From Caldisericia bacterium (GTDB lineage Bacteria > Caldisericota > Caldisericia > JAAYUI01), in assembly GCA_963674785.1 (NCBI GenBank), contig OY771555.1, forward strand, positions 640,001 to 704,000: a DNA stretch of 64,000 bases, in the 5' to 3' direction. The notes beneath the pieces were generated by a model that did no database searches, was not told the DNA's origin, and was given only the letters and a program-made list of their open reading frames with translations. Position 1 is the first letter of the stretch. Each line of letters starts with the position of its first letter. Positions 20,957 through 56,018 of this stretch are shown in pieces. A program made the position numbers and the translations under genes.

Positions 20957-20972
20957 TGGCACGTTAATTGCA
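20957..20972 (+). promoter_or_regulatory. Sigma-54 (-24/-12) promoter of giant protein 1
   Basis: TGGCACGTTAATTGCA is an exact match to TGGCACG-N4-TTGCW. Confidence 0.85.
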
Positions 20973-21228
20973 TGTATGTCGTGTGGTAAGTAGTGGTGCG
21001 TGGATGCACTTGCGGTTTGCACGCTCATTTCTGCCAATTTTACACAGAGATATTTATTCTTAAGTATCGGTTACATGGAGGCATATTGAATCACCTCCCT
21101 CTAGGGTGGTAGTTATTGTTATGTGGCCATACTGTGTGATTTATTGTTTTTTGGCATGGCTTATGGTCGGGATGGTAGGCGAACGACCGAAACCGTGCTT
21201 GGTTTGCAAATATGAAAGGAGATTGGTG

Positions 21229-24200
21229 ATGAAGAAGTCAATCAGCATTCTCGTGGCAATTTTGATGCTATTTACAGCATTTACCGCCACAACTCAATTC
21301 AGCACAGACGATGTGTTGGCAACAGACAATACAAATGCTGTATTTATTGCAGTAAGGTGGGCTCCAAATGGTAGAATTTGGAGTGGTGATCAGATCTACC
21401 CACCTGCAGGCGAGTCAGCCATGGAGGCAAGAAACTTTACCTCCGGTGGACACGTCGTTTCCTGGGGAAGACCAGGATTCCAGATGCCCGCAGGCGTACA
21501 CTGTTGGACAGAATTCTATCTCGATGTTGATGCAAACAGAGGTGAATCTCAGGAAAGCAATCACTGGTATGCAATCGTCGATACAGATGGAAATCTTTGG
21601 TTCGACAGAGATGGTCACTTCCATGATTCAAGATACTATACGTATGCTGATCCATGGACCGACAATTACCAGCAAGATCCAGCAAGAACAGACGACAATT
21701 GCAAGGATAACCCCTATGCAAGAGTCGACCCAATAACCTCAAACAACACACAGGGACCATACACCTTCCCACAGTACAACATCTCTGGAGCACTTAATCC
21801 AAATGATCCATTGGATGAGAATCCAGTGTACTTCATGGACAAAAATGTTGGCAGAACATTCCGTGTTGGATATGCAGATCTTGAAGCTCACAATCCAGGT
21901 TCAGTTGTCCAGGCTGATCCATATACCGGACAGAACCCATGGGATTATGGTCTTGATCTTGAGAGATTCCTTGATGGAAGAAATCCACAGAATCCAATGC
22001 CACCAGTCATGCAGGAGCCACCATGGGATTATGACGGTGCAGCCGGCCCAGCAATAAACACCTATGATGTCAATGAATATTTCTTTGACGGAGCACTTGA
22101 CACATGGAACTACGGTGAAGAATGGCACGCAGACAATGCCCCAGGTACCCGTGACACAACCGGACCAAACAACATGCATGAATACCTTTTCGGAGATTTC
22201 ATCTACAGAAAAGGTACTATTGATGCAGGTAATATTGTTACAGGTATGGACAGAAACGCTGGTGCAGATGCTGACTATCCACATATGTTTGGATGCACAA
22301 GGCTTACACCTGTTGTTGTCCCAACATCATGGGGAAGATATGTAAGATACCCAGCTGGCTCAGTCGTAGTTGACTCCAGATCAAATGGTGGAACACCAGG
22401 AACAAGAGACCCAGGCGACGACCTTGATGTTGGTCTTGCTGTTTATAGATTCCCACTCTCTGCAGACAACTTTGACCCTGCAGGAAATCCTCCAATGAAC
22501 CTCAACAATGCTTGGGGAAGCATCGGCTCAACAGTCCATCTTGAAGAGCCATGGGGATATGAAGAGCTTGAGTGGAATGGTGCAAACCCAGAACTCTTTG
22601 ATTATGCAGTTCAGCAGACACCAAACGGAAACGTTTCACTTTCAGAAGCCATCTACATGAAAGACACTGGCGGCTCCACAATCGACTTTACTGACAGAAG
22701 ACTCACAAACTGGGGATCTGGACAGATGTTCCTTGACAGAACAGATGTCACAGGATTCATTCAGCCAGGTGATGTTCTTATTCTCTCAGAAGTCCTTCGT
22801 GGCGGATGCGCAACACCAACATATGACATCTCTGTTGAAACAGACCTTTGGGAAGGAATGCTTCCATCTGTTACATCAGCAGCTCTCAGATCACCAAATG
22901 GTGAGATCACATATAGGGCACAGACAATCCAGAAATCAACAGTTCTTGGACAGGATCCAGATGATTTCGCGGTTCCAGCTTGCACCTTCGAGGGTGTTAA
23001 ACTTGACTATCGTGAATATCTCGGAGTTGAGATTTGGAAGGATGATGGTGTAAACAACATGCTCGACCTCGGTCAGCTTTTTGCAACCCCATCAACATAT
23101 GTCGCAACCGAATATAACAACACAGACGACTATCACGAAGGTGAAGTCAGTGAACTCTTTGTTGGTGCACAGGGATCAGAAGTTGATACCGATATTGGTC
23201 TTGGTCATGACACCCTCACAATGGGTAGACAGACTGCACCAACCAACATGGTTGTTCTTCCAATGTCAGACTTCTTCCAGCAGACAAGAAGACTCGACTT
23301 CAATGCTCCAAATGGTCCAGTGGGAGCCGGAACATATGGTGCAAATGGTCATCCATATTATAACCAGCTTGCTCCAAATGCAGAGCAGTATTTTGAAGTC
23401 AATCCAAACGGATTCGGTGCACCAGTAAGATTCTTTGATGTTCAGAATCCTGGTGGATATATGAGCGATGCTCTTGGACAGAATATCTATGGTTGTGGCG
23501 AAGCCCTCTATAGAGACATGGACTATCTCCTTCCATCAACAGCTGAAGGTGTTGGTGCATTCGAGATCTCAATGGGTGACATCAGACTTACTGAAGTCAC
23601 AGTTACCAGAATGGATCCAGCAACAAGCACTTCAACTGTCATCGTTTATCACAGAGACTCAGTTGTTGCCCCAGGTGACCAGGACGTAAACCTCTGGGCA
23701 GGATTTGGTGGATGGGATGCCTACAATGATATTCCTTGTGGTAATGACCTCTCACCATTTATGACCAACTATTATGATGGTTATATTATGGCTCACGAAG
23801 TTTATCCATGGTCAGCTGGAACAGTCATTTCCGGAAACTTCCAGCCAGTATGGCTTGACTGGGAACATGAAGACCCATACGACAACACAAAAGACATCGG
23901 AATGAACTACCGTTATGATGCAGGTGAGTTCATCTATGATGTTGGTTTCCTCTTTAGTAAGAATCAGGAAGACAAAGATCCAACAGACCCAGGTCTTGAA
24001 TTCCCAGGTGAAGATAACCTCTCATCATGGGCAAACCCATTTGGAACAGTTTCAGAGGGTTGGACAAGACTTACACCTGTCGAATACGGCGGAAGATATT
24101 ATCAATGTGGAACCCAGACTTCAATCACTGACGAGTGGATCAATACCATTCCAGTGCAGGGTATCACATATGGAAGAAACGGCAACAGACGTTACCTCGA

Positions 24201-27200
24201 CATGGAAGTTATTCCAGGTGACCCAGGAATCGTCGTTGAAACATCATCAAACCTTAAAGTTGAGCAGACAACCGAGTTCAGAGTTTCATTCGAATCAGGT
24301 GCTGAGCTTGTTGAGGGACATTGGGACGGTCCATCATGGGTTCCAGATGAAGTTGGATACGTAATCCTCCAGGGTAACGGTATTTTCTACGGTCCAGAAG
24401 GTGCAACATATCTTAATAATGTTCTTTATGAACTTACACCTGACAGACCAGAGGCAAGATTCCACTTTACACCATATCGTGGAAACTGTCTCACAAACCC
24501 ACCAGGTGATCCAGGCGACATGGTCGAACTCTTTGTTATCAGAGAAAAGGGCGGAGTTGTTCCTGCACCACCAGACGGATACTATGCTGACTACTTCTTT
24601 GAGAGATGGTACAAGAATGCTAATTATGATCTTGGACAGACACCATATCATTACATCCCAGCACTCGAGATTCCAGATGAGAACAGACTTCCATACCCAC
24701 CACTTCCAGACAACCTCAAGAACAACTATGACTGCTTCAAGAAAGTCCAGTACCAGGTAGAACCAGAAGAGCTTATCATCGAGTCAAACAAACTCTGTAT
24801 CACAACACTTGATCAGAGATTCCCAAACCTCGAGTTCACACTCTTTGATGCAGATAATGAGAATGATGTTAATGATCCAGCAAACATCCCATTCTCAATC
24901 CCATTTGATAACAACACAATTCAGCAGCCATTCCACACCAATATTGTAAACTACAACTGTCATGGTGGCGGAATTGACTTTATGTGTGTTGCTGCACCAG
25001 AAGATCCAACATATGTTAACGACCCATCAAATCACAAGTTCATCATTCAGTACAACCTTGATGGTACATATTTCTACTGGTACTGGTATGAACCAACAAA
25101 CTCCGCAACAATCAATAACCCACAGATTCCAGGTGCTCTTGATCCAAATGACGTAGTCATCGGTCAGGAATGGAACATGGGCTTCCCAATCGATCCAAAC
25201 ATGGATGTCAAGAGAACTCCAGTTATGGTCGAGGATAGAACCACAATTGATGATGTCGACTGTTCAAATGGCGCAACACTTTGTGATGTTTGTTACATCG
25301 ATGGCATGAGAGCAATTGGTGACATCACTGGTAAATACCATAACGAACTTCGTTCAGATAAACTTGGTATCTTTGATGGCACATTTGGTCACATCTATCA
25401 GTACGGTATCCCAACATATGTAACAGGATACGGACAGCTCACAGATGCAGATCAGGGCGGAACATGTCTTGCTCTTGCAAAACCAACCGATGGTTCAACA
25501 CACATGGAAGTAAGAATTTATTCTTACATGAACGTGTTTGACTATAACTCAACCATCGCACATCCAGAGCTTACAGATGGCGCTCCATACTTTGTTTATG
25601 ACAAAATGGGTGGAGAAATGCCGAGCTACGGAATCGACTACTGTGGAACACACGACATGAAGGTTTACCCACCAGATCCATACGTAAACTTCGCAGAATT
25701 CCACGTGATCGACCATGGTCTCCAGTTTAGTAAAGTTCATTACACAGCCGGTGCAAACACCGGTGGATATATTGGACCATTATCACCACTTCAGATCCCA
25801 ACCCCACAGATTATTGCTCCATACGATCCAATCCTTAGATACATCCCAACCGAATTCAGATGTTATCCTGGTGGACAGACCCACGCAGGTAGAGCAACTG
25901 GTCAGGTTTGGGGTAATTATGGCGGACCATTTGGTTGGAACGCATATCCAGCAATCTGGTCAAGACAGACAAAGAAAAATCTTCAGTACGAACAGTATGG
26001 AAAACTCGGAACTGAGTTCTTCCCACTCACAGACTATATGCTTCTCTTTGTACTCAAAGACGGTTCAGGAAGACATCTTTCCTTCGACCCAGACCATGAT
26101 CCAGACAGAAGAATCACAAGAATGGTTGTCTCAGGTCCATTTGCAAGACCAAAAGTTCTCAACAACATTACTGGTTCAGTTGTCGCACCATACGAATACA
26201 ACCAGATGACACAGGTTCCAATCCAGTATGACTTCTCAGGTAAGATTGTTATTGATGAAACAAACTGGACAGATTTCGAAATGGTCGAAGTCACTGAGAA
26301 CTTCAATGGTGATGCAGCAAACGAACCATATGCAGGTTACGGAAACATTCCAAACGAAAACGATCAGTACAGAGATCCAAACCCATTCATTGAAAAACTT
26401 GATAACCTTAACTTCGCATCAATTGGTTACATGAACCCAATCGGTGCAGGTCAGCACGAAAACACAGATAACGTATTCGTAATTGACGAACTTATCCCAT
26501 GGCAGCCAGGAAAAATCCTTGTTTACGTCACACTCTATGATGGAACATTCAAGATGTACCAGGATTGCTGTACCTCACCACCAACCGATGGTATCGATGT
26601 ACATGCACTTGGAATTGAATACACAATCTCAGAAGACGAAGAGATCAGACACATTCCACTTGGAATTGACAACAAACTTGAGATCAAACTCACAGAAGAG
26701 CAGCCATATCATAATGACATCGCTGAGGCTTCAATATTCTGCAACGACGCATACATTTATGTCTGGCAGGATAGAGGTGTCGCAAGAGCTGGTGAAGACT
26801 TCTACACAGGTGCAGGCGATGCTTGGGTAACAAACCCACCAGGTTCATCAAGATTCTACTATGGTAGAGATGATGGAAATGCAGCACAGTATGATGTTAC
26901 ATGGGACGACAACCCAATCGACATCAACGGTAACGGAATCGTTTCATTTGCAGAGCGCGAAACAGAGATCGTTGGATCATACAACATCGCAACAAACACA
27001 TGGAGCGGTGGACTTGTTGATGCAAGAACATTCCAGAGAAATAATGGTATCTATGTCTTTGAACTTACAGAAGACAACGGTTGCCAGGTAACAGATTCAG
27101 GTCTTGACTTTGGTGGTGAAGAGGGTGTTGGTGATGAGCCAGACCATATCATCTCCGATAAAGAACTCCTTCCACTTTATATTACAGCATACAAATACGG

Positions 27201-30200
27201 TGATGATAACGCAGACCGTGCATTCTCACCATATTGGGATCCAAGCCCACTTCAGGAAACATACCAGTCAGACAACGCTCCTGAAAACCAGATGAGATAC
27301 TCACACGAAGTTTACCTTGCAGGTCAGATGGCAATTCCAGTAGAGCCAGAAGACACACTTATTGTTAACCTTGCAAGTCCAAACAAACTTACCGCAGGTA
27401 TCACACCAGAACTTATCTCACCAGATACACCTCTCATGATTGAGGTCAAAGACGAGTTCGGTGCCCCAGTTGACCTTTCATATGGTATCGAAGATATAGA
27501 TGGTGAATTCATTGTCGAAGATGAAGATATTTGGAAATATCTCTTCAGAGATCCACATCCAGATAACAGATACTACTTCGGACAGGATGCTTCACTTCCA
27601 CAGTACTACTATCTCAGAACTGACCTTCACAACACAGACGAAACATATGCAAACAACGAAGAGCTTTACTCGGTAAGAACAATTGATTCAGCAACATGTG
27701 TTGAGTCAATGGCAATCCCATTCAGACCAATTGAAACAAACTTTAGCAATAAAGAAAACGGACAGTACATCTTCCGTGGATTCTGTGCCAATGACGTCAC
27801 CGTTTGGAAGGGTGAACCAGGCGATCCAGAAGAAGAAGAATGGCTTAAACAGCATCAGTTTGTTGTCTATGTCTACACACCAGACAGAACCCAGCGTGGA
27901 ACCCTCGTGATTGATATCGAGTCACCACAGGTTGAGTATGAAATTACAAACGTTGAAAACCTTGAAATGACTCAGATGTCACCAGGCGACCCAGACTTCG
28001 TCATGACAGCCGCTGACAACAGAGTTTACAAGATCAGAGCAACCGTTAAGGACGCAGAAGGTAGACTCGTTAAGGGTGTCACCAAGGGCGTTAGTGTTTG
28101 TGGTGGTGGTGTTAAGAGTACCGCAAGATTTACACCATTTGTCACAAGACCAGAGAGCTTTGAGTTTGACTTCTCACCATGCGAAGGTGCACCATGTGGC
28201 GAAAAAGTTTATCCACACATCGGATTTGACTTCAACGCTTCAGGTAAAACTGCAACACTTATCGATGACATCATCGAACCAGGTAACGAAGAATTCTACC
28301 AGATGGGTGGATTCTTCCTTAATTCAGATCTTTCATATCAGATTTGCCGTGACAGAACTGCATCAGGTTATGTTGAATACAACACAACAAACCACTGGTA
28401 TCAGTTCGACAACACATGGGAAACTGACTATGTCAACCCATCAGATCCATCCCACAAGGGTTGGGCAATCAACATGACACTTCCTCCAAACCTTGAGTTC
28501 CTTACAGAAGGAACAACCGAACCAGAGGTTAGAGGCTGGGGACTTGGTTCAATCTATAACTACGAGTGGTACACAGGTGCCCTCTTCACAGATGTTGATA
28601 GAAATGGAAACCTTGATTATCACGACTCACTTGGACTTGATGTCAACGCTCAGACAGAGTTCTATCTTTGGGCAGAAGACGTATTCAATGTCGGTGGACT
28701 TGTTGGTAGCAACGTTTACTGTAACAACCTCAATGAAGCTGACCTTGCTGGTTATCCACCAAGAGACAGAACAGACCCAAGAGAAATGCACAGAAGATTT
28801 AGATACACAGTATCTAATGACCAGACATTCTATCTTGACTGGGAAGCATGGCCAGATCATACAGCAGCAGTTAGAGCTCCATACATTGAAGTAAGACATG
28901 CAGACGACATGGATAGACCAGAATACAGCAAAGAAAAATTCTGGAATCCAGAAAACTACGACCTTGTTTACAATGTTCCAAACCACATGGTTTGCTTTGT
29001 GTATCCAGCTGACTACAAGACATCTCGCGATGAGTTCAGAGATGTTCCAATGCATAACGACGGAATTGTAATCTTTGTTGGTAACCAGCACGAGACAGTG
29101 ATCTTTGGTAAGACTCACGACTCAGACTTCGATCCAAATGCAAAAGAGACAACCAGTCACTACACCCCAACCGGAACCGGTGAAGGTACTCTTGAGATGT
29201 TCTACATGTCAAAGAACAAGTGGTATGTCCTCAACACCGAAGTTTGCTGCGAAGGCGAAATCAAACTTGATAACCCAGAGTACTACAGTGTTTACGTTCA
29301 GGATCTCGATGTCTACAAGGGACTTGCAATTGATGTCAAGACTCTTGAGCCACTCACTCCAAAAGCAACTGTAACACTTTACATCACAGTCACCGAAATG
29401 GGTGCAGGATATCCAATCAGTGGAGCAAATGTTAAAGTAAGCGGACAGGGACTTGATATCTCCAAGAGAACAAACTCCGAAGGTAAGGTAGAAATTGAAG
29501 TAGCACCAGCATCAACCGGATTCATCACAATCACAGCTGAAAGTGATGCAAACGGATCAGGTGAGGTCAGATTGATGGTCGGATCCGACAAGACCCCACC
29601 AATGCTCGTTGTTGACCCACCAGCACCAGTTACCAATAAGAAAGAGATTTCTGTAACAGGTACAACAGATGCAGGTGTCGTTGTTACAATCAACGGCAAC
29701 AAAGCAACTGTCAAAGCTGATGGAACATTCACAGGCAAAGTTAACCTTCAGCCAGGTAAAAACCCAATCACTGTCGTTGCAAAAGATGGTTCTGGTAACA
29801 TGACAACAAAGACTGTCTATACAACACTTGATACTGAGCCAGCATCAGTTCTTCTTGAGACAAAAGGTCCATTCTACAATGCAGATCCAGCAGAAGCAGT
29901 AACTCTCAAGGGTCGCGTTGAGGAAGGATGCACCGTTGTCCTTAAAGATAGCAGCGGCGGAAAAGTTGCCGACGCTTCAGTTGTTCATGATCATTTTGAA
30001 GTAGATGTTAAACTCAAAGCTGCACCAAGCAAAAATGAGTTTGTAATCGAGGCAACTGACCCAGCAGGTAATGTAACATCTTCACCATTTGTCATTGAAA
30101 ATATCGAGAGAATCGAAATTGCTGTTGTTGCTGGTAAAGCTGGCGTCACAGTCAATGGTGAACTCAAGACACTCCCAGAAGCAGTTCAGACAAACAATGT

Positions 30201-30477: not shown

Positions 30478-30508
30478 TTATTCTTAAGTAAACAATCTTA
30501 GGACTTAT

Positions 30509-30540
30509 AAAGCCCGCGGCAGAAATGACCGCGGGCTTTT
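30509..30540 (+). terminator. Intrinsic terminator after giant protein 1
   Basis: aaagcccgcgg-cagaaatga-ccgcgggctttt. Confidence 0.9.
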
Positions 30541-30786
30541 GTTATATATGGATACATTTTTTTGCTTTTAGGTTTTTTCATAGTTCTTTTAAAGTATCTG
30601 CATGTCTTGTATTAACGCTGTGGATTTAAAAATGATTCTCAGTTTGGTTTGCGATAACCATGTGAACAATATTGGTAAAGATTAGAACTTAATAGAATAG
30701 AAGAAATATCTCGATGGTCATAACTTTTTTGAGAGAACCCATGCAAGCAGTTGTAGGACTTTTGGCTTAGTTTTTTGAGTGTGTTT

Positions 30787-32130: not shown

Positions 32131-32218
32131 GCCGAAGTGGCGGAATTGGTAGACGCGGTGGATTCAAAATCCATTGAGCTCAACACTCGTGAGGGTTCGA
32201 GTCCCTCCTTCGGTACCA
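32131..32218 (+). tRNA. tRNA-Leu(CAA)
   Basis: GCCGAAG/CTTCGGT acceptor stem, D-loop GGAATTGGTAGAC, anticodon loop TTCAAAA, long variable arm, GGTTCGAGTCC, encoded CCA. Confidence 0.97.
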
Positions 32219-40535: not shown

Positions 40536-40537
40536 TT

Positions 40538-44396: not shown

Positions 44397-45197
44397 ATGC
44401 TCCCAAAGATTTCTTTTTTTGGGTACATAATTTCAACATATCCGGTGATGGTGTTTGTTAGCTCCGTCACCGGTTTGTTTTTGCTTGTCTATAATCTTAT
44501 CAAAGATGATTACAAGTGGTCTTTTGTTTTAAAGATGATACTTGGAATCATCATAGGCTTTTTCACTTTTGCAAGGCTACTGAATGTTTTATTGCATCTT
44601 GATTACTACAGGCTTGCACCAAGCCTGATTTTCAGGTTTCAACTGAAGGGTTTTTCTGTTCTTGGTGGGATGATTGGGGCATCTTGTGTGTGTCTGTTTT
44701 TGTTGTGGAGAGAAAAGAAGGATTTTAAAAGATTTTTTGATATAACTGTTATCCCCTTTTTCACTGGTTTTTTTCTCATGAAGATTGGCTGTTTTCTAAA
44801 TGGCTGTTGCGGCGGGAAAATTACAGCAAGCTGTTTGGGTGTATCCTTCCCGACATCCCCTGCTGCCTCTAACCCCATGAAGATGCTTGATTTTGTATCA
44901 GGACTTTTGATGATTCCAAAAGCAGTCTTTCCAACACAGCTTTTTGAAAGCTTTGCAGCACTTATCTTTATTCCAGTGGTACTGCTGATAAGAAGAAAAA
45001 ATCTTGCTACTGGCAAGCTTTTTATAATTTCCGCTATCTATTTTTTGTGTTTTCGGTTGGTCATTCACTTTTTCAGGGATTTCCCCTATCCACCAGTGGT
45101 AGTCAACATCATCTATCCTGCTATCTATGTTGCCCTTATTGCAACCCTAGTTTTTTGTTATTTTTGGATATACAGGAAAAGTACTAAGAGTGCTTGA
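44397..45197 (+). CDS. lgt: Prolipoprotein diacylglyceryl transferase family protein (divergent)
   Basis: About 7 TM; GFSVLGG, KIGCFLNGCCGG, FPTQLFES, YF.FR..I.FFR. Confidence 0.8.
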   Translation: MLPKISFFGYIISTYPVMVFVSSVTGLFLLVYNLIKDDYKWSFVLKMILGIIIGFFTFARLLNVLLHLDYYRLAPSLIFRFQLKGFSVLGGMIGASCVCLFLLWREKKDFKRFFDITVIPFFTGFFLMKIGCFLNGCCGGKITASCLGVSFPTSPAASNPMKMLDFVSGLLMIPKAVFPTQLFESFAALIFIPVVLLIRRKNLATGKLFIISAIYFLCFRLVIHFFRDFPYPPVVVNIIYPAIYVALIATLVFCYFWIYRKSTKSA

Positions 45198-46161: not shown

Positions 46162-46298
46162 TTTTTGAATATATGTGTAATATTTATCCAATACGGGGCT
46201 TCTTTACTCAAAATCACCCACTTTCTTCAAATCTTCTGTGGATAACCCTTGGTCTACAGTGAGGGGAAATAGCCTGTATTATTGAAGGTTTGATTCTC

Positions 46299-46314
46299 TG
46301 GCATACAATTTGCA
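46299..46314 (+). promoter_or_regulatory. Sigma-54 (-24/-12) promoter of giant protein 2
   Basis: TGGCATACAATTTGCA with correct GG-N10-GC spacing; DnaA box TGTGGATAA at 46237. Confidence 0.8.
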
Positions 46315-46457
46315 TAATGATAGGCGGAGCCGTAGTCATGGTGTCTATGGCTGAGCTATGTATCAGCATAACAATGGGCTGACCAGTGCTTTCTCTGGTT
46401 AGTCAAAGTGAACTGAAAGCGTATTGCCTGCGAGCGCAGGTGAAAGGAGACAACGCA

Positions 46458-49400
46458 ATGAAGAAGATCATAGGATTTATGATTGCATTGTTCTTAGTAG
46501 CGTCATCACTGGTAGTCCCAGGTATGATGATCGAGACAACATCAGCTGCCGAAACTGATGTTCCAGCAATTTTTATCGCAAACCGCTGGGCACCAGTCGG
46601 AGCCAGATGGAATGGTAACAGTCTCGTAGCAGAGAGAACACGTGAATTTGATGGTGTTGGCACCTCATGGGGAACCACCCAGTACAAGATGCCAGGACCA
46701 GGTGCAACAATGGAGATTAACCCAATGTCAGCACCAAATGGAGTTGTTATTAACGTAACTCCAGACAGAATCACTGCTCCATTCCCATCTGTTGCAGATG
46801 ACCAGAGATATTCTATTCCAATGTATTGGACAGAGTTCTATCTCAGAGTCGAACCTGCAATGGGTGAATCACAGGAGTATGAGAGATGGTATGCAGTCGT
46901 CGACGACATGGGACAGCTCTGGTTTGACCCAGATGGAAGATTCCATGATGGCAGATACTGCGCAACAGCAGATCCAAACACCGAAGCATATAAATACTTT
47001 GGCGGAACTGGTAATGACAATTGCAAAAACAACCCACACACAAAGGTTGACCCAAGCAATGCAAACAATACCCAGGGACCATACCTTTATATGCCAACCA
47101 CCCTCTATGGTTTCTTCAACTATGGAGTCAGAGTAAGTGAACCAGGTAGCTACACAGATCCAAGCAACTACCCACTTTTCGACACTGACCCAGAGACAGG
47201 TGGACTTTTCTTTGTTCCAGATCCAGACCGCACACATGGAACAAAGAGAACATTCCAGGTTGGATACAACGATATGCCAGACTTCCCACTCCTCAGAGAT
47301 GGTGCATCAACAATTACCCTTGCCGGAATCTCAAGACCAAACATTCCAGCAATCGGAACCAATCTTGTTGACACAGTAGTCGGCGTAACAACAGTTATCA
47401 GAGACACAACTGTCTTACCATATGAGACAGATGAGATTGATGACTGGGATGTTTCACTTCCATACGTCAGATTTGTTGATGGTTATGATGCAAGCATTGC
47501 TATTCCTCCACTTCCACCAAGCTTCCCACCAGGACCTCCAGGTGCATATGATGACAACCTTATGCCTCCACTCGTAGACCTTAACAACTACTTTGCAGTT
47601 GATAATGATCTCTTTGAGTATGGTGAAGAATGGCATTCAGCAAACATCGTTCTCGACCCACCACCAAACCAGGCAGGACAGCCAATGCAGAACTTCACCG
47701 GTGTTAGAATGGATATATATGATCCAGGTGAATGGATCTACAGAGCCGGTATGAACTTCATGGCTATTGCGCCAAACTTACAGGCAGTTCATGGTTACGA
47801 TTACACAAACCCAGTAGAAACATATGACTATGCATACTTTGGTTGTACAAGACTTACACCTGTTTCCATGAGATACAACGGACAGTTCTTCAACTATGCA
47901 CCAGGTTCAATCGTAAGAGACGCAACCAATGGTGGACAGTATGGAACATACGAAGAAGGCGACGACGTTGACCTTCTCGATCCAGTGACTCTCCAGTCCC
48001 CACATCTCCTCTACAGATTCCCACTTGCAGATTCAAACTTCCAGGGACCAGGAACAGGCCCATCAACCCTTCAGCACGAAGCATATGAAACAGTCCATCT
48101 TGACAACTACAACTACAACGCAAATGAGAGATGTACTTCAGGTGCAAACTACTACGATCCTTATGAAGGAATCTACATGAAATCCAATCAGAGTGGCGGA
48201 GAAACATCAATCCAGCCAGGAGATTGGAGACTTACAAACGTTAACGGTAACTCTTATTCAATCGATGCATGGATGGGTTGGATTGGCAGAGACGGTGGCA
48301 CACTTCCAGCAGCCGGTGGAACAGAAGAGAGACTCTTCTCACTCGGTGGAATGTGGCACGGTGATGTCCTCGTCCTCTCAGAAATCGTAACTGGTGGATG
48401 CGACTCACCAGAGTACAACCTCTCAGTTCAGACAGATGTCTGGGAAGGAATGATCCCATCAGAAACATGTGCAGCACTCAGATCACCTAACGATGATTTT
48501 GATAGACTCGCACAGAACGTCCAGAAAAACGCAGTTCTTGACCCAACCGGAACAAACTTCCAGTATCCAACAACTGTTTTCCAGGACATGAAATTTGGTT
48601 ACAGAGAATTTGTTGGTGTCCAGGTTTGGCACGATGACAACAAAGACTGCAACCTCGGACTCCAGGAAACAGGTCCAGTACCTCCAGGCGAGAACTTATT
48701 CATGCTCAACCTCGCAGATGACTATATCCAGGGAAGAACTGGTGAAGCACACATCGGTATGGCTGACGGTTATGCAGCAAAAGATGTTGGCAGAACCCTT
48801 TCACAGTTCTGGGCAGAAAACATTGATCCATCATTCAATGGTTATGGTCTTGGTGACAACTGGAACGGACCACTCACACCAGTAGAACCAGGTCCAAGAT
48901 TCTATGACACCCACAATGCAGGTGGATACACCAACGGTGGTGTTGTAAACCTTAACATGTATGGTGTTGGCGAAGCAATTTATTACGATACAGACGCAAA
49001 CTACGACATTTCTGCTGGTGACGTCAGAATGAGCGACGTTACAGTACAGCGTGGAAATGGCACATTTGCCGAAATCGTAAAATATAACAAAGGTTCAATT
49101 GTTACAGCAGGTGATGCTGATGTTAACATGAGAAACGGCGTTGGCGATGACCTTTCTGAGTTCGTTCCAGTAATGAACCCAGCAGGACAGGTTATCTATT
49201 GGCCAATGTACTTCGATGAGAGAATCGAAGACGTAGTAAACCCAGGCAAATATTTCGAAGTAAACGGAAGATTTGACACAGACGAAGCAATCTATGACGC
49301 ATCCTACACCGGATATGCAGTAGTTGCTCCAGGATTCCAGAGACTTACAGAAATTAACCTTGGTGGAGTTACCTATGCAGCAGGTTCAACCATTGAACAG

Positions 49401-52400
49401 CCAGACATGTGGCTTTATCAGATGCCTCTCTACGGTATCACAATGGGAAGAAACTGCAAATTCCAGTACACAGACATGATCGTTGCCCCAGGCACAACTG
49501 GAATGCAGGTTGAAATCGATAAACCTCTCAAGGTTGAGCAGACCAGCCAGATTGATATTTCTTTCTCCCCACCACCAGCAAAAGAAAGATTTGATGAGTT
49601 TGGTAACTATCACCCAGAAGAAGTTATCTATGTAGTAATCGAGAATGTTGGTAGCCCAGGCTACAATGACATTAACGAAATGTATAGGGTGGTTTCAGGC
49701 AGACAGCCAACCGCTCGCTTCCAGTTCACACCATATAGAGGTTCATGTCCAAACTCAGGAAACTCAGACTTCGTGAACTACCTCGATGAAGATTCAAACT
49801 ACTATGTAAGAATCAGATCTTACAGAGACTTGAACCCATCATGTGAGAACCCAATTTGTAACACAGGTGAAGTTGCTGATTGCACAGACCCAAAGAGCAA
49901 CGTTGCCCCACTCGACAGAAAATATAACGACCCATGGTGGTACAAGAGAACACAGGCTGACCCAACAATGATCGAGGGTAGACCACTCCGCGACTATCAG
50001 AAGGGTGTTGAGATTTGTGCTCCATCACCAATGCCACCACTCCCATATGCATTGGAAGATTCATATGACTGTTATGTTGAGAAGAAATATCTCATCTCAC
50101 CAGAAGACATTGATGTTCTTCCATCAGTTGCCTGTTTGCAGACACTTGACCAGAGATTCCCAAATTTCAGTGTTACACTTACAGACGCTGACAACCCAGA
50201 CGATGTAAACGATCCAGCAGGAATGAGAATCTCCGTTCCACTTACTGATGATACAAATGTTGATCAGGCATACGGAAGAGAAGATTATCTCATCGCCACA
50301 TACAATGGACATGGCGGCGGAATCGACTGGATTGGTACTGCAATCGACAACAACGGAACAGCACAGAGAAAGTACATCCTCCAGGCAAACGAAGATGGAA
50401 CATATCTCTATTGGTACTGGCTTGAGCCAAACCCAATCACCTCCGGTATCGTTGGCGCAGTCAATCCAAATGCAGCACCACAGCTCGAGGGTGTCCTTGA
50501 TTCAAACGACCTCCTCATTGGTCGTGACTTCACCGGTATTGTTAACTGGACAGTTGTTGATGGAAAATATAAACCATCAATTCCTGCAGACGAGAGAGTT
50601 TGCAGAACTCCAGTTCATGTTGATGACAAAGAATACTGGAAAGACAGCGATTGCTCAGCAAAATACACAACATGTTCAGCCTGCTCAATCGAAGGACTTA
50701 AACCAATGGGTGAAGTCACAGGTAGACATGCAAACTGGAATGCTTACAGAGACACATTCAACAACCGTGTTTCACACCTCGCAAGTGACTACTATGGACA
50801 CTTTGATGGTGTAGGACCACTCAACAGCTTCACCAATGCAAGAGCTTGGATTGCCGGTATCAACCCAGCTTATGACATCGGTGGACCAAACCAGATGCTT
50901 TGGACAGGTCCATGGGCATCAGGATTTGGTGTACAGACACTCGTAACCTCATACGGACAGACAGAAGACGAAGATCCAGGTGGAGATGCTCTCATCGCCA
51001 TCCTTCCAAGAGACGGAAGAACACATCTCAACCTTCAGGTTTACACTGTCAACGCAATCTATGACTACAACTCAACAATTCCACATCCAGCAGATGGTAC
51101 ATCACCATACTTCGTAATCGATCCACTCAAAAACGAAGGTATCGACTATTGTGGTACCGCAGACATCAAAGTTTACCAGCCAGACCCATATGTAAACTTT
51201 GCAGAATGGCAGATTGTTGACCATGCACTCCAGTATTCAGAAGTTGATTATACAGCTGGAACTGGTGCACTTCACGATCTCAGAGTCCCAACACCACAGA
51301 TTCAGTCACCATACAATCCAATCCTTAGAACATCCAAGGGTGGATTCAGATGTTACCCAGGTGGACAGACTCATACCGGTAGAGTTACAGGTGGAACATT
51401 CGGAGTTGGCGGAGCATTCGGTTGGAACGCATATCCAGCAATCTTCGATAACAAATTCTACAAGCTCGGAACAGAGTTCTTCCCACTTACAGACTATGGT
51501 ATCTACTTCATCCTTAAAGATGGCGAAGGCAGACATCTTTCCTTCGACCCATGCTGGCCAGTAGACCTTAGAATCAAGAGAATCGAAATCGTTGGACCAT
51601 TTGCAAGACCAAGAATCTGGGACATCGACGAAAATTCAGTATTACCAAAATACAAACAGTGGGGACTTGAAAACGTACCAATCCAGTATGACTGGTCTGG
51701 TGAAATCGTTATCGACTCAAACAACTGGAAAGATTACGAGTACAGAGGAGTCGACAGCAACGGAACAGGACTTCCACTCGACTTTACAAACAGATCACAC
51801 TTTGGTGACGTAACACTTCCGTCACCAAACCCATGGCTTGTCTACAACGGCAGACTTGACTACACAATGGTCGGAGAATGCTCAGAGCCAAGCTCATATG
51901 ATAACCTCTTTGTTGTCGACGAAATCATTCCATGGAACTACGGCAAAATCCTTATTTACGTAACTCTTTGGGATGGAACATTCAAGATGTACCAGGATTG
52001 CTGTGTATCTCCACCAGTTGATGGTATTGATGTACAGGCACTCGCAATGTCACTCGAGATCGAAGAAGATCCAGAGAGAGACAAAGCATTTATCCAGCTT
52101 GATGATGATGGCACAATTATGATGCCACAGCAGACCTTCAATGTAACTCTTGCAGAGCATCATGATCTTGAAAAAGGTCAGAAGCCACAGCCAGAGTGGT
52201 TTGACAGCGAAGGTGACGAAGTTTCAGAATGTAACGACGCTCTTATGTACGTATGGCAGGACAGAGGAACAATGAAACGTGGAACCGGCACACTCCTTTA
52301 TGGTGCAGGTGACGGTTGGGTTTCAATGGCTCCAACATCCTCATTGCTTACATTCCACCCAGAACAGTATGAAGAACCAGACGACATTAATGAAGATGGA

Positions 52401-55400
52401 AAAATCACATTTAATGACTGGGAAACAGAAATTCTTGGAACATACGACATGGCAACCAATACATGGGCAGCCGGTATCATTGATGCAAGAACCTTCCAGA
52501 GAAACGATGGACTCTACAAGTTCAGCCTCAACGAAAACACCGCAATGGTAGATACCGTTGGTCTTGACTTTGGTGGCGAAGTTACAGTTGACGAACAGGA
52601 CCACTTGATCGCAAGAAACGAAGTCCTTCCACTTTACATCACAGCATACAAATATGGTGATGATGATGTAGACAGAGCATTCACACCAATGTGGGATTAT
52701 GAACCACAGGCACAGCAGACAGAAACAACAAGACGTTACAGTCATGAAGTTTACCTTGCAGCCCAGATGGCAGTTCCAATTGAACCAGAATGTGACCTTA
52801 CAGTAACAGTAACACCAGAGAGACTTACAGCTGGTGTCACACCAGAGCTTGTTGACGTTACAAAACCACTCACATTCAACGTCATGAAAGACTCAGCACC
52901 AATGAACCTCCTTGAAGGTATCGCAGATGACTGGGGTAACACAGAGGTCAAAGAAGAAGACGCATGGAACCACCTCTTCTATGATCCACATCCAGACAAC
53001 GAATACTTCTATGGATATGATGCATCACTTCCACAGTACTACTGGGTAAGAACTGACCTCCATAATGACGACGGAACAGAGATTTGTAACTCCGAACTCT
53101 ATGGTCTCAGAAACGACCCATCAGGTCCAGTTGTTGTTCCATTCAACCCAATCGAAGCAGACTTCAGCAACTCCGCTGAGGGTTCATATGTCTTCAAGGG
53201 ATTCTGTGCCAACGACAACAACCAGTACATGGAAGACTTCCCGAACTATGACGACAAAACAATGGATCCAAATGTTGAAGATCCAGAGGAATGGTGGAGA
53301 GAGAAACACGCATTCTACGTAAGAATCTACTCACCAGACAGAAGACACGCCGGTTGCGTAAACCTTGACGTTTACTCACCAGACGTAACATACCAGATTA
53401 CAAACTTTGAGAACAAGGGCGAAATCCATGAGTCACCAGGTGACCCAGACTTCGTTATGACAGCAGCAGATAACAGAAGATATATCGTCAAGGTAACAGC
53501 AAGAGACGCAATGGGCGTACTCCTTAAAGGTGTTACCAAGGGCGTCAGCGTCTGCGGTGGCGGTGTCAAGAATACCGCAAGATTCCTTCCATTCTCAACA
53601 AGACCACAGTCATTCGACTTCACATTCGAACAGTGCATGGCTCCACCATGCTGCACACCAGTTGAGCTTCACATTGGTTATGACATTGTTCCAGATGGCG
53701 ACATCACAAGAACAGATAAAGAACTCTACCTCCTTTCAGGGTTCTCAATGAATAAGTCAACCAGTGCAACAACATGCTCAGGTTCAGCATCATCAGTCTC
53801 CATGGGTTCAATCCGCTACAACACCACCAACAAGTGGTATTGGGGAGACAACAAGTGGGACGTCACAATCGAAGATGGCGACGAAGTAATGCCATGGGTT
53901 GCATGGGATCTTCCACCACCAGTCGAAGGCTGGGGCGCAGGTTCAATCTACAACCATTGCTGGTACGGCGGATTCCTCTTCGCAGACTTCAACGAAGACG
54001 GAAAACTTTCATACCTCGACGAACTTGGACTTGATGTTAACGCACAGACAGAATTCCACATCTGGGCAGAAGACATCGCATACATCGGTGGACTTGTTGG
54101 TGACAACGAATACGTCAACACCCCAGCATATGCTGACCTTGCCGGATTCCCACCATTCAACGACAAAACCGACCCAAGATACACAGAGAAGAGATTCAGA
54201 AACATGTATACCAACGACGAAACCTTCTTTGTTGACTGGGAAGCACCACCAAAGAACGTCGCACTCATCGACTCACCACTCATTACCATCCTCAGAGCAG
54301 AAGACAGAATGCCACTTGGCAAAGATATGTTCGATCCAGAGAACTACGATCTTACATATGCATTAGACAACCACATCATCGCAGTTGTCAGCCCAGCTGA
54401 CTACTCTGACGAAGCAATGAAGCCAAATTCAAGAGTTTACATGTCTGGTAACCAGCATGAGACAACAGTCTTTGGACACACAGAAGTTTCAGAAGAGTTC
54501 GAAGGTGCAGTTGAAACAACAATCGAATTCAAACCAACTGGTGTAGGAACAGCCGTTGCTGAACTTACATTCATGTCACCAAACGAGAACTATCTCAAGG
54601 GTGAACTCCAGTTCGTTGTACCAGAATGGTACTCAGTTAGAAAACATGGTATGAAGAGTGTTGCCGGATACGGTGATGATGCATCCGAGTGGAGAAAACA
54701 CAGAGACGCAGAAGAAGCCGAAAAGGGATACCCAGAATACTACATGGAAGATTGGAACCCATGGACATTTGACGCAGGCAAAGGACTTACAATTGAGCTC
54801 TACAAGGAAGGCGAAATCTTCCCACAGACCAAGGGTAAACTCATTGCAATCGTCAAAGAAGCCGGAACAAACATGCCTGTCCCAGGAGCAAAAGTAGTCT
54901 TTACAGGTGCTGGCGTTGATGTCGAAAAAGAGACAAACAACGACGGTGAAGTACTTGTTGAAGTTACTCCAGACGAAATGGGATTCATCAAAGCAAAAGC
55001 TTCAAAAACAGAATATCTTGGTTCACCAACAGCAACAATTGCTGTCTCCAGAGATGTTACACCTCCAAGCCTTGTCGTTGATCCGGTGAAAACACCAACC
55101 AACAGCAAGACTCAGACACTCACAGGTGTTGCAGAGCCAGGTTCAACCGTTCTTGTCAATGGCAAGAAAGCAACAGTTGGACCAGATGGAAAATGGTCAA
55201 TTGATGTTGAGCTTAGCGAAGGCGACAATGTATTCTCAATCATCGTCAAAGATGCTGCAGGAAACACAACACAGCAGTCAATAACAGTCAAACTCGACAC
55301 AACACCTCCAGACATCCTTGTTGAGCCATTCGAGTCTGTACTTGAAGGCACAGAGTATACAATCGTTGGAAGAGTTGAGCCAGGTTCAAAAGTTTGGGTC

Positions 55401-55934
55401 AATGGAACTGAAGCAGAAGTCGTCAACGACTTCTTCAGAATCACAATCCCACTTAAAGAAGCTCCATCATTCACACCAGTAAACATCACTGCTGAAGATG
55501 CAGCTGGTAACAAAGCAGAGCATGAAACGATGAGAATTGAAAATGTTGGTATGCTCAACATGAAGCTTTGGATTGGTGCACCAGACATGGAAGTCAATGG
55601 TGAAACTAAAACGCTTGATGTTCCAGCACAGATTGTTTCCGGAAGAACAATGGTTCCACTTAGAGCTGTTGCAGATGGTTTTAACGCTGAGACTGAGTGG
55701 GTTGCCGCAACAAAAACTGTTGTAGTTAAATACGGTGACCTAACAATTGAACTCCCAGTTGGCAACAGTACTGCAACTATTAATGGTGTCGCAGTTGAAT
55801 TGGAAGTTCCAGCACAGATTCTTGATGGAAGAACAATGGTTCCATTTAGATTCATTGCCGAAGCATTTGAAGCTGAAGTTGCATGGCTTGGCGATGAGCG
55901 CGCAGTAACAGTTAAAAAAGCAATCTATCCATAA
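46458..55934 (+). CDS. Giant secreted surface protein 2 (~3158 aa) with Ig-like domains and C-terminal copper-amine-oxidase N-terminal (stalk) domain
   Basis: AAAGGAGA RBS, signal peptide MKKIIGFMIALFLVASS; GRTMVPLRAVA..F.A..EW and GRTMVPFRFIAEAF repeats; paralog of 21229-30477. Confidence 0.9.
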   Translation: MKKIIGFMIALFLVASSLVVPGMMIETTSAAETDVPAIFIANRWAPVGARWNGNSLVAERTREFDGVGTSWGTTQYKMPGPGATMEINPMSAPNGVVINVTPDRITAPFPSVADDQRYSIPMYWTEFYLRVEPAMGESQEYERWYAVVDDMGQLWFDPDGRFHDGRYCATADPNTEAYKYFGGTGNDNCKNNPHTKVDPSNANNTQGPYLYMPTTLYGFFNYGVRVSEPGSYTDPSNYPLFDTDPETGGLFFVPDPDRTHGTKRTFQVGYNDMPDFPLLRDGASTITLAGISRPNIPAIGTNLVDTVVGVTTVIRDTTVLPYETDEIDDWDVSLPYVRFVDGYDASIAIPPLPPSFPPGPPGAYDDNLMPPLVDLNNYFAVDNDLFEYGEEWHSANIVLDPPPNQAGQPMQNFTGVRMDIYDPGEWIYRAGMNFMAIAPNLQAVHGYDYTNPVETYDYAYFGCTRLTPVSMRYNGQFFNYAPGSIVRDATNGGQYGTYEEGDDVDLLDPVTLQSPHLLYRFPLADSNFQGPGTGPSTLQHEAYETVHLDNYNYNANERCTSGANYYDPYEGIYMKSNQSGGETSIQPGDWRLTNVNGNSYSIDAWMGWIGRDGGTLPAAGGTEERLFSLGGMWHGDVLVLSEIVTGGCDSPEYNLSVQTDVWEGMIPSETCAALRSPNDDFDRLAQNVQKNAVLDPTGTNFQYPTTVFQDMKFGYREFVGVQVWHDDNKDCNLGLQETGPVPPGENLFMLNLADDYIQGRTGEAHIGMADGYAAKDVGRTLSQFWAENIDPSFNGYGLGDNWNGPLTPVEPGPRFYDTHNAGGYTNGGVVNLNMYGVGEAIYYDTDANYDISAGDVRMSDVTVQRGNGTFAEIVKYNKGSIVTAGDADVNMRNGVGDDLSEFVPVMNPAGQVIYWPMYFDERIEDVVNPGKYFEVNGRFDTDEAIYDASYTGYAVVAPGFQRLTEINLGGVTYAAGSTIEQPDMWLYQMPLYGITMGRNCKFQYTDMIVAPGTTGMQVEIDKPLKVEQTSQIDISFSPPPAKERFDEFGNYHPEEVIYVVIENVGSPGYNDINEMYRVVSGRQPTARFQFTPYRGSCPNSGNSDFVNYLDEDSNYYVRIRSYRDLNPSCENPICNTGEVADCTDPKSNVAPLDRKYNDPWWYKRTQADPTMIEGRPLRDYQKGVEICAPSPMPPLPYALEDSYDCYVEKKYLISPEDIDVLPSVACLQTLDQRFPNFSVTLTDADNPDDVNDPAGMRISVPLTDDTNVDQAYGREDYLIATYNGHGGGIDWIGTAIDNNGTAQRKYILQANEDGTYLYWYWLEPNPITSGIVGAVNPNAAPQLEGVLDSNDLLIGRDFTGIVNWTVVDGKYKPSIPADERVCRTPVHVDDKEYWKDSDCSAKYTTCSACSIEGLKPMGEVTGRHANWNAYRDTFNNRVSHLASDYYGHFDGVGPLNSFTNARAWIAGINPAYDIGGPNQMLWTGPWASGFGVQTLVTSYGQTEDEDPGGDALIAILPRDGRTHLNLQVYTVNAIYDYNSTIPHPADGTSPYFVIDPLKNEGIDYCGTADIKVYQPDPYVNFAEWQIVDHALQYSEVDYTAGTGALHDLRVPTPQIQSPYNPILRTSKGGFRCYPGGQTHTGRVTGGTFGVGGAFGWNAYPAIFDNKFYKLGTEFFPLTDYGIYFILKDGEGRHLSFDPCWPVDLRIKRIEIVGPFARPRIWDIDENSVLPKYKQWGLENVPIQYDWSGEIVIDSNNWKDYEYRGVDSNGTGLPLDFTNRSHFGDVTLPSPNPWLVYNGRLDYTMVGECSEPSSYDNLFVVDEIIPWNYGKILIYVTLWDGTFKMYQDCCVSPPVDGIDVQALAMSLEIEEDPERDKAFIQLDDDGTIMMPQQTFNVTLAEHHDLEKGQKPQPEWFDSEGDEVSECNDALMYVWQDRGTMKRGTGTLLYGAGDGWVSMAPTSSLLTFHPEQYEEPDDINEDGKITFNDWETEILGTYDMATNTWAAGIIDARTFQRNDGLYKFSLNENTAMVDTVGLDFGGEVTVDEQDHLIARNEVLPLYITAYKYGDDDVDRAFTPMWDYEPQAQQTETTRRYSHEVYLAAQMAVPIEPECDLTVTVTPERLTAGVTPELVDVTKPLTFNVMKDSAPMNLLEGIADDWGNTEVKEEDAWNHLFYDPHPDNEYFYGYDASLPQYYWVRTDLHNDDGTEICNSELYGLRNDPSGPVVVPFNPIEADFSNSAEGSYVFKGFCANDNNQYMEDFPNYDDKTMDPNVEDPEEWWREKHAFYVRIYSPDRRHAGCVNLDVYSPDVTYQITNFENKGEIHESPGDPDFVMTAADNRRYIVKVTARDAMGVLLKGVTKGVSVCGGGVKNTARFLPFSTRPQSFDFTFEQCMAPPCCTPVELHIGYDIVPDGDITRTDKELYLLSGFSMNKSTSATTCSGSASSVSMGSIRYNTTNKWYWGDNKWDVTIEDGDEVMPWVAWDLPPPVEGWGAGSIYNHCWYGGFLFADFNEDGKLSYLDELGLDVNAQTEFHIWAEDIAYIGGLVGDNEYVNTPAYADLAGFPPFNDKTDPRYTEKRFRNMYTNDETFFVDWEAPPKNVALIDSPLITILRAEDRMPLGKDMFDPENYDLTYALDNHIIAVVSPADYSDEAMKPNSRVYMSGNQHETTVFGHTEVSEEFEGAVETTIEFKPTGVGTAVAELTFMSPNENYLKGELQFVVPEWYSVRKHGMKSVAGYGDDASEWRKHRDAEEAEKGYPEYYMEDWNPWTFDAGKGLTIELYKEGEIFPQTKGKLIAIVKEAGTNMPVPGAKVVFTGAGVDVEKETNNDGEVLVEVTPDEMGFIKAKASKTEYLGSPTATIAVSRDVTPPSLVVDPVKTPTNSKTQTLTGVAEPGSTVLVNGKKATVGPDGKWSIDVELSEGDNVFSIIVKDAAGNTTQQSITVKLDTTPPDILVEPFESVLEGTEYTIVGRVEPGSKVWVNGTEAEVVNDFFRITIPLKEAPSFTPVNITAEDAAGNKAEHETMRIENVGMLNMKLWIGAPDMEVNGETKTLDVPAQIVSGRTMVPLRAVADGFNAETEWVAATKTVVVKYGDLTIELPVGNSTATINGVAVELEVPAQILDGRTMVPFRFIAEAFEAEVAWLGDERAVTVKKAIYP

Positions 55935-55986
55935 TCGGGTAATTACTTTTTGAATGAAGACTTACTGTCTCTAAAGCAGTAACTAC

Positions 55987-56018
55987 AAAGACCCCCAAGA
56001 AATTGGGGGTCTTTTTTT
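55987..56018 (+). terminator. Intrinsic terminator after giant protein 2
   Basis: aaagacccccaa-gaaa-ttgggggtcttttttt. Confidence 0.92.

Follow-up and report, generated by a model that had tools for sequence, protein, structure and literature searches.

The window analysed here is a stretch of 64,000 nucleotides (nt) of DNA from a Caldisericia bacterium (contig OY771555.1, positions 640,001 to 704,000; G000:C1:640001-704000 in our numbering), whose genome is a single contig of 2.23 Mb with 39% G+C. It carries two giant genes, gene 1 and gene 2, whose products (P0001 and P0002) had been described in an original prediction, made by a model from the letters alone, as a two-protein surface system with each gene a sigma-54-driven monocistronic unit. 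We examine the two genes, the family of paralogs to which they belong and the control, expression and possible function of that family. Features are collected in Table 1.

Table 1. The giant genes, their control regions and their paralogs (window positions, or genome positions where marked G000)
Feature	Position	Strand	Remarks
Giant paralog 1 (P0001, 3082 aa)	21229..30477	+	ATG start; open reading frame (ORF) stretch 21106-30477
Giant paralog 2 (P0002, 3158 aa)	46458..55934	+	ATG start; ORF stretch 46386-55934; architecture as P0001
Sigma-54 promoter, gene 1	20957..20972	+	TGGCACGTTAATTGCA; 11/11; GG 20958-9, GC 20970-1; predicted start near 20983
Sigma-54 promoter, gene 2	46299..46314	+	TGGCATACAATTTGCA; 10/11; predicted start near 46325
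Predicted 246-nt 5' leader, gene 1	20983..21228	+	AAAGGAGA at 21215-21222
Predicted 133-nt 5' leader, gene 2	46325..46457	+	AAAGGAGA at 46443-46450
Intrinsic terminator, gene 1	30512..30543	+	GCCCGCGG..CCGCGGGC, 8-bp GC stem then TTTTGTT; read by eye, folded -20 kcal/mol
Intrinsic terminator, gene 2	55987..56021	+	12-bp stem (55987-56014) then T-run
Candidate upstream activator site	46207..46225	+	CTCAAAATCACCCACTTTC; 92 nt ahead of promoter 2
Stand-alone Fis-type helix-turn-helix (HTH_8) protein, 97 aa	45868..46161	+	24.6 bits; directly upstream of promoter 2
~60-aa repeat YDxGExIY..GDxRLT..GS.V, P0001 copy 1	22183..22374	+
~60-aa repeat, P0001 copy 2	23482..23691	+
~60-aa repeat, P0002, four N-terminal copies	47715-47921, 48147-48245, 48954-49127, 49263-49406	+
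Glucodextran_B / Big_6 Ig-like domain, P0001 residues 2791-2868	29599..29832	+	Pfam, 51.6 bits
Partial Cu_amine_oxidN1 ('stalk') domain, P0001	30214..30441	+	40.7 / 47.9 bits; profile positions 27-102 of 108
Glucodextran_B / Big_6 / Big_13 Ig-like domain, P0002	55074..55298	+	Pfam
Full-length Cu_amine_oxidN1 domain, P0002	55593..55910	+	113 / 119.7 bits
Perfect DnaA boxes	17533, 17543, 17599, 19424		around hisS and dnaA
Giant paralog, 593818 type	G000 593818-602751	-	BLASTP
Four tandem giant genes (cluster)	G000 740434-781660		BLASTP
Large paralog without sigma-54 site	G000 1685079-1693304	-	BLASTP
Large paralog without sigma-54 site	G000 115842-122696	-	BLASTP

Proteins and domain architecture

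P0001 and P0002 are paralogous from end to end, as had been claimed. BLASTP aligns them over their full length (37% identity, 3411 columns, E = 0), and in a global alignment 45.3% of 2808 aligned columns are identical, with peaks of 49-57% in residues 1250-2500. The seven shared motifs that had been quoted all occur in both proteins and in identical order, and the conserved cysteines are many: 19 align Cys to Cys in the global alignment, from totals of 34 in P0001 and 36 in P0002. Both proteins start with a leader (MKK, a hydrophobic run, then VLA/TSA) that is Sec-type as judged by eye. In P0001 the leader is followed by an N-terminal module (residues ~30-960), a conserved beta-sandwich core (~940-2040), a module common to the short paralogs described below (~2040-2700), Ig-like domains and a degenerate stalk domain. 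The terminal Ig-like and stalk domains of the original prediction were found in both proteins, the stalk being full in P0002 and partial in P0001.

Promoters, ribosome sites and terminators

Sigma-54 promoters are marked by GG and GC dinucleotides 10 nt apart, in the context TGGCAC-N5-TTGCA. The -24/-12 promoters at 20957 and 46299 are the sole strict matches in the window (two matches to TGGCAYN5TTGCW against 0.18 expected, with two or more in 3 of 100 shuffles). The predicted ribosome site AAAGGAGA sits 6-7 nt before the ATG in both genes, and GC-rich hairpins with T-runs, the strong terminators of the original prediction, follow both; that of gene 1 was missed by a consensus terminator scan. 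For both genes the description as a monocistronic unit with a sigma-54 promoter is supported.

Upstream of promoter 2 lies a candidate activator site. Its 19-nt pattern CTCAAAATYACCCACTTTC (18 specified bases) has two copies in the genome, the second lying 87 nt ahead of the promoter of the four-gene cluster, and the motif is only partly kept in aligned orthologs; we treat it as a candidate only. Another motif, GTATAC-N-GTATA, found ~150 nt upstream of several P0001-type and 593818-type orthologs, was not adopted because its only match in this genome precedes gene 1. The 97-aa HTH_8 protein encoded just before promoter 2 is single-copy in the genome and occupies the same position in all three P0002-type loci elsewhere (51-63% identity). 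It could act at that promoter as a second regulator or by bending the DNA.

Family members in the genome

BLASTP of P0001 and P0002 against all ORFs of the genome yielded nine large paralogs, plus two short paralogs (994 and 846 aa) beginning at about residue 2040 of P0001. By these searches the genome holds about 11 family members (9 large and 2 short), seven of which are sigma-54-driven from four transcription units, so the 'two' proteins of the original prediction were an undercount. The paralogs are colinear at 30-45% identity, and their domains are unique, without near-identical tandem repeats; the first ~1000 residues can be aligned by BLAST among only some of them. A hidden Markov model of the ~60-aa repeat (YDxGExIY ... 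GDxRLT ... Y.xGS.V) detects it two to four times within the N-terminal third of each of the nine large paralogs. We read the family as giant (2,900-3,700 aa) secreted proteins that appear specific to Caldisericia. Together the seven sigma-54-driven genes amount to 68,328 nt, 3.06% of the genome.

The ~60-aa repeat also occurs in four copies in a 1962-aa secreted protein with Big_2 and Glucodextran_B domains and a codon adaptation index (CAI) at the 93rd percentile.

Predicted sigma-54 regulon and its conservation

Across the 2.23-Mb genome there are seven matches to the strict pattern TGGCA[CT]N5TTGC[AT], two inside ORFs and five in intergenic DNA, where each site faces a gene within 300 nt. 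Four of the five intergenic sites precede giant-gene units, namely the 593818 gene (minus strand), gene 1, gene 2 and the cluster, ahead of its first gene. The fifth stands ahead of rapZ, a 431-aa ORF and rpoN, in that order (G000 1879175-1882755), which suggests that sigma-54 autoregulates this rapZ-x-rpoN operon. As far as these sites define it, the regulon seems to hold little besides the giant genes and the rpoN operon.

The presence of rpoN and of a bacterial enhancer-binding protein (bEBP) had been proposed as a check, and the genome encodes both: RpoN has a Sigma54_DBD match of 156.5 bits, and one bEBP scores over 200 bits (242), a 467-aa response regulator with REC, Sigma54_activat (AAA+) and HTH_8 domains. 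The start of the gene for the 1962-aa repeat protein overlaps the 3' end of this sole bEBP gene (L002 / L042, G000 1003242-1010511).

Within the four-gene cluster, three internal intergenic hairpins are strong, lack a T-run and are followed by a common CGAGARAGAA..GATTTAT motif (G000 750316-772552). Since a true terminator is found only after the fourth gene, the cluster is probably one operon of ~41 kb, the other three units being monocistronic. The hairpin and motif sites may serve for processing or stabilization of the 41-kb transcript.

Upstream regions were compared at 20 ortholog loci, 13 from the same family (one of them, L011, interrupted by N) and seven from the sister family f6. The promoter (at least 10/11) is present in all 12 readable same-family loci, drawn from three genera, at 142-277 nt before the ATG. 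Promoters of at least 10/11 occur in 5 of 5 P0001-type loci (L006-L010; 227-277 nt before the ATG; four aligned), and the gene 2 promoter is retained in 3 of 3 orthologous loci. In alignments of orthologs the promoter is the best-conserved block of otherwise diverged intergenic DNA. Judged by this conservation, sigma-54 control appears real and under selection in this Caldisericia family.

Codon use, chromosome position and RNA

The restricted codon use that had been noted relative to neighbouring genes is confirmed by codon counts. In the two giants, compared with the other genes of the window, CCA makes up 0.93 of Pro codons (versus 0.54), AGA 0.86 of Arg (0.45), TTC 0.68 of Phe (0.29), CTT plus CTC 0.94 of Leu (0.54) and ACA 0.65 of Thr (0.53). 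The bias has the same direction as that of ribosomal genes and is stronger.

CAI was calculated with ribosomal-protein and elongation-factor genes as reference and ranked among 1523 genes. Gene 1 (0.787, 99.6th percentile) and gene 2 (0.780, 99.3rd) both exceed the reference mean of 0.714, in a genome where EF-Tu reaches 0.80-0.81 and the median is 0.585; this comparison with ribosomal proteins, suggested in the original prediction, shows extreme codon adaptation. The seven sigma-54-driven genes range from 0.752 to 0.787 (98.2nd-99.7th percentile), and the paralogs without a sigma-54 site from 0.59 to 0.66. Size alone gives no high CAI, as is seen from two further giants (4684 and 2732 aa), whose genes rank at the 87th and 69th percentiles. 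The 16 other top-CAI genes that were checked include GroEL, EF-G, ribosomal protein L9, subunits of oxoacid:ferredoxin oxidoreductases, butyrate-pathway enzymes, glutamate dehydrogenase and solute-binding proteins, so that CAI acts as an expression proxy here. The highest CAI of the genome (0.833) belongs to a 437-aa gene without a Pfam match (L026, G000 1936841-1938157), whose product is another candidate abundant protein.

The cumulative GC-skew minimum falls at G000 694406, which is window position 54406, and all seven sigma-54 genes (593-782 kb), which are placed to both sides of it, are encoded on the leading strand. The dnaA gene is directly and divergently upstream of gene 1, with perfect DnaA boxes nearby. 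By these sequence signs the predicted replication origin region is within the window.

In one metatranscriptome library, four contigs of a ~90%-identical relative (5591, 714, 798 and 2413 nt; word depth 31-77) jointly cover 21081-30515. The first has 85 further letters upstream of 21081 and, given equal leader length, begins ~13 nt past the predicted start; the last ends at 30515, inside the gene 1 terminator. These contigs, which give neither levels nor ends, are a weak hint that gene 1 is transcribed as the predicted unit. The few parAB contigs of the same library have a depth of about 5, and contig depth cannot rank genes; no RNA contig fell on dnaA or hisS in that library, which counts as no evidence.

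Putative wall-anchor module

Cu_amine_oxidN1 has 148 matches in the genome, versus 3 for SLH, and this supports Cu_amine_oxidN1, not SLH, as the general surface-anchoring module of this organism. Passages on PF07833 in two sources treat it as a predicted wall-binding or wall-hydrolase-associated module (bioRxiv 10.64898/2026.09.23.753664; PMC4137172). Among the seven sigma-54 paralogs, only P0002 has a stalk with full score (119.7 bits). Two other candidates were rejected. The only high-CAI SLH protein, which might have been a canonical S-layer protein, is a 5'-nucleotidase, and a copper amine oxidase enzyme was dismissed for the giants since only the N1 'stalk' domain is present, without the catalytic Cu_amine_oxid domain.

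Sequence and fold searches with the protein body

The first ~2700 residues of P0001 and P0002 gave no Pfam match at E <= 0.1, no NCBIfam match at E <= 1 and no match to a PDB sequence (phmmer, E <= 1). Feature searches of the ESM Atlas with the N-terminal 971 aa (best score 0.77) and with residues 2036-2720 were without usable lead.

Two parts of the body were modelled with AlphaFold2. The core model (residues 940-2040, 1101 aa, 34-row alignment) is nearly all beta, with a mean predicted local distance difference test (pLDDT) of 70.6 and a predicted template modelling score (pTM) of 0.70. Its best Foldseek matches are complement C3, A2M (alpha-2-macroglobulin), CD109 and ECAM (E 2.6e-8 to 1e-6); since they superpose with a template modelling (TM) score of only ~0.1 and a root-mean-square deviation (rmsd) above 25 A, what the core has in common with these proteins is only the domain type. 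VIA-align of the core model against 48,161 chains gave as its best match the MG1 domain of ECAM, an A2M (Z 8.3, rmsd 2.0 A over 77 residues), together with single beta-sandwiches of the Haloferax S-layer (7ptp, Z 7.5), SbsC (Z 6.9) and SlaA (Z 6.5) and of glycosidase accessory domains.

The model of the N-terminal module (residues 30-960, 931 aa, 40-row alignment; pLDDT 65.4, pTM 0.54) matched no known fold (Foldseek best E 0.18, VIA best Z 3.9). A moderate model of 931 residues does not prove that the module is a new fold, which it may be. Against the same orthologs, the N-terminal part has 77, 59, 53 and 51% identity, versus 85, 72, 63 and 60% for the core. No enzyme domain was found by Pfam and NCBIfam on the whole proteins or by fold search on the two modelled parts (30-960 and 940-2040). 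Neither protein contains a CxEQ thioester motif, nor does either have an A2M or TED Pfam match at E <= 0.1. The original statement that the ~2700-aa body can be assigned to no known family is upheld by the Pfam, NCBIfam, PDB, Foldseek and VIA searches. Of the outcomes that the original prediction named as refuting it, a match of the body to a characterized family, a genome lacking rpoN and an ordinary CAI were each looked for and not found.

Distribution and literature

The protein core was found in 28 of 93 Caldisericota genomes (E <= 1e-10), and by family in all 10 f1 genomes and the present genome (G000), in 13 of 13 f6, in 1 of 2 f5 and, weakly, in 3 of 9 f2 genomes. A genome of the same genus, G066, has nine matches with matching placements, and orthologs of the P0001, P0002 and 593818 types were found in all three genera. 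The 150 relatives listed by a word-indexed search are labelled Caldisericia bacterium or just bacterium. Residues 1500-2400 searched by phmmer against 1.84 billion representatives matched only 57 proteins at E <= 1e-3; 38 of them are at E <= 1e-30 and mostly giants, the weaker ones being mostly short fragments. A few family members carry a precomputed match to bMG3 (PF11974). The profile of the ~60-aa repeat found 62 longer proteins, including Caldisericia subtilisin-like (PF00082) and CarboxypepD_reg/PEGA proteins, and matched no PDB sequence. Sequencing runs that contain the sequence come from microbial mat and wastewater.

One cultured species of Caldisericota is known. Our search of the literature on Caldisericota S-layer, envelope, metaproteome and sigma-54 surface proteins found no description of the family. 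Passages of three papers record Caldisericia proteins in a biofilm metaproteome, none of them named (PMC4100146), an envelope of Caldisericum exile that is outer-membrane-like by electron microscopy, yet without BamA (PMC4104836), and a placement of Caldisericota near Terrabacteria (PMC11915815); in the last two, these passages mention none of the giant proteins.

Interpretation

We lean, with modest confidence, towards reading the giants as abundant components of an envelope coat, either an S-layer or a sheath, under sigma-54 control. The proteins would be exported by way of the Sec-type leader read at their N-termini. On the models, the body may be a rigid stack of beta-sandwich domains behind an N-terminal module of ~930 aa that evolves faster, and the C-terminal Ig-like and Cu_amine_oxidN1 'stalk' domains, the latter a module on about 150 proteins, would tether the protein to the wall. 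Seven genes would be expressed from four sigma-54 promoters opened by a single NtrC-type regulator in response to a signal; because all four promoters would need that one regulator, the coat genes would switch on together upon phosphorylation. Very high output is suggested by codon adaptation equal to that of translation and central-metabolism genes, by the origin-proximal leading-strand position, and by long leaders, strong ribosome sites and strong terminators. Abundance at the protein level, wall tethering, dependence of the promoters on the bEBP and any lattice are inferences.

Several points weigh against it. The stalk is weak (28-51 bits) in five of the seven sigma-54 paralogs, and the 593818 type has no Cu_amine_oxidN1 match at E <= 0.001, which weakens the case for wall tethering of each protein. 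The fold matches of the core model are generic (Z <= 8.3, TM ~0.1). The size of 3,100 aa and the 19 conserved Cys are atypical of characterized S-layer proteins. Codon bias and RNA contigs are proxies only for protein abundance, and the 5' leaders fold no better than shuffled controls (minimum free energy z -1.4 for gene 1 and -1.6 for gene 2). The core query was unmatched at E <= 1e-10 in 65 of 93 genomes, with none in the 58 genomes of f3, f4 and f7, and the family therefore cannot be the general envelope solution of the phylum.

A further point against it, on the side of control, comes from the sister family f6. The promoter was found at none of its seven loci, one of which (L025) offered only ~240 nt upstream. 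Across the phylum rpoN is present in 75 of 93 genomes, and above the cut-off it is in 0 of 13 f6 and 0 of 2 f5 genomes. At f6 loci L019-L022 the giant genes have a long (~215 nt) leader, ahead of which stands a conserved TTGTTATATAAT-like box, an indication that these genes have changed over to a promoter of sigma-70 type. Because f6 retains the proteins without rpoN or the promoter, sigma-54 control is, by this comparison, not intrinsic to the proteins and is specific to one Caldisericia family.

The main rival is that the giants are adhesins or biofilm-matrix proteins that reach from the wall to partner cells, filament neighbours or particles and form no continuous coat. Such proteins are likewise giant and secreted, with Ig-like domains and a wall-binding module at one end; the ~60-aa repeat behaves as a mobile extracellular module, shared with the subtilisin-like and CarboxypepD_reg/PEGA proteins; the distal N-terminal part evolves faster than the core; and mat and wastewater are both biofilm habitats. 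The body, however, is not made of near-identical tandem repeats but of unique domains, colinear at 30-45% identity, and the model of the 1101-aa core (pTM 0.70) shows a defined body of several domains. Codon bias at the level of translation genes, here in seven genes, is unusual for adhesins. We regard this rival as clearly the less probable of the two, though a serious one.

The original prediction had left room for alternative coats, in which mutually exclusive paralogs would be switched against phages or grazers, or by condition. Several paralogs do have diverged N-terminal parts, two types of upstream motif stand before different promoters, and the extra Fis-type HTH gene is tied to the P0002 type only. 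All four promoters are nevertheless near-identical sigma-54 sites in a genome with a single bEBP, and no inverted repeats or recombinase were noticed beside them on reading, no systematic search having been made. The retention of paralog types in G066 and in three genera, and a CAI equally high in all seven genes, point instead to simultaneous, non-redundant use, and we think switching coats improbable. We think it very improbable that the giants are alpha-2-macroglobulin-like or other non-structural machines (protease traps, or platforms that bind or degrade polymers), since the leading Foldseek matches (C3, A2M, CD109 and ECAM), the VIA match to ECAM MG1 (Z 8.3) and the bMG3 matches of a few members stand against a TM score of ~0.1 with rmsd > 25 A, the lack of A2M or thioester Pfam matches and of CxEQ, and the failure of any search to find a catalytic domain, the fold models covering residues 30-2040, so that a small domain at ~2040-2700 could have escaped notice.

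Within the coat reading, we would expect several paralogs to co-assemble rather than to serve as interchangeable alternatives, because the types persist across three genera and share a single promoter type and activator, and because P0002 has the sole intact stalk. A stronger version is that all seven giants form one hetero-oligomeric sheath, pinned to the wall only by the P0002 type and deployed by one NtrC-type activator, with rpoN itself under a sigma-54 promoter; we offer it as a speculative and rather improbable version. Were it true, subunits of 3,000 residues, each with an N-terminal module of new fold, would make up a regulated, hetero-oligomeric bacterial envelope layer without counterpart among characterized S-layers.

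Comparison with known systems

The closest parallels in overall plan are the S-layers of Gram-positive type (SLH-anchored Sap/EA1 and SbsB, SbsC, and CWB2-anchored SlpA), which likewise have a Sec leader, an acidic beta-sandwich body and a terminal wall-binding module. They also have similar signs of very high expression, namely strong ribosome sites and terminators and long leaders. The giants differ in being two to three times larger, in having a Cu_amine_oxidN1 anchor rather than SLH or CWB2, in their 19 conserved Cys and in number, with seven co-regulated sigma-54 paralogs in place of one or two genes. No sequence similarity to S-layer proteins was found by Pfam or by phmmer against the PDB.

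Control resembles that of sigma-54/NtrC surface genes (pilA with PilS/PilR, and the flagellins of Caulobacter, Vibrio and Campylobacter), where a -24/-12 promoter stands before a highly expressed surface protein; the REC-AAA+-HTH_8 activator of such systems is also in this genome. The giants, however, are neither pilins nor flagellins, and their regulon is almost only the giants and the rpoN operon. With the macroglobulin-like (MG) proteins of the A2M/complement class (ECAM/YfhM, C3, CD109) they have in common long arrays of MG/Ig-like beta-sandwiches, but not global superposition, the thioester motif or A2M Pfam domains. They recall giant fibrillar adhesins (Bap/Ebh/SiiE/LapA/MpAFP type) in size, secretion and Ig-like domains, and differ from these in lacking a long near-identical tandem array, in the compact model (pTM 0.70) and in extreme codon bias.

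With seven codon-optimized genes near the origin that take up 3% of a small genome, the family stands out as a candidate for a main envelope component within one branch of the class. Each protein has ~2,700 residues without a recognizable family, and the ~60-aa extracellular repeat is unnamed. The regulon offers a compact natural sigma-54 system that is seemingly devoted to surface-coat genes, and the sister lineage appears to have placed these genes under a different promoter after rpoN loss.

Other features of the window

The DNA between and after the giant genes (34133-45197 and 56116-57559) is rich in predicted lipoproteins with Cys lipobox-like leaders. It includes two paralogs of ~676 aa that are 40% identical (34133-36166 and 36270-38297), ORFs of 696 and 762 aa without a Pfam match, two ORFs of ~250 aa and lgt (44397-45197). 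Further on come three paralogous ORFs in tandem (57995-62314), of 476, 483 and 457 aa and 24-28% identical, with weak BNR_4 matches and membrane anchors at their N-termini.

The tmRNA gene (17069-17422, minus strand) is directly adjoined by a RhuM-family ORF (16017-17069). In two runs, contigs of relatives join 16018 to ~17068, or 16018 to 16906, skipping the RhuM ORF, which has the appearance of a mobile element inserted beside the tmRNA gene. The tmRNA gene, together with tRNA-Leu(CAA) at 32131-32218, explains the depth spikes seen in all runs.

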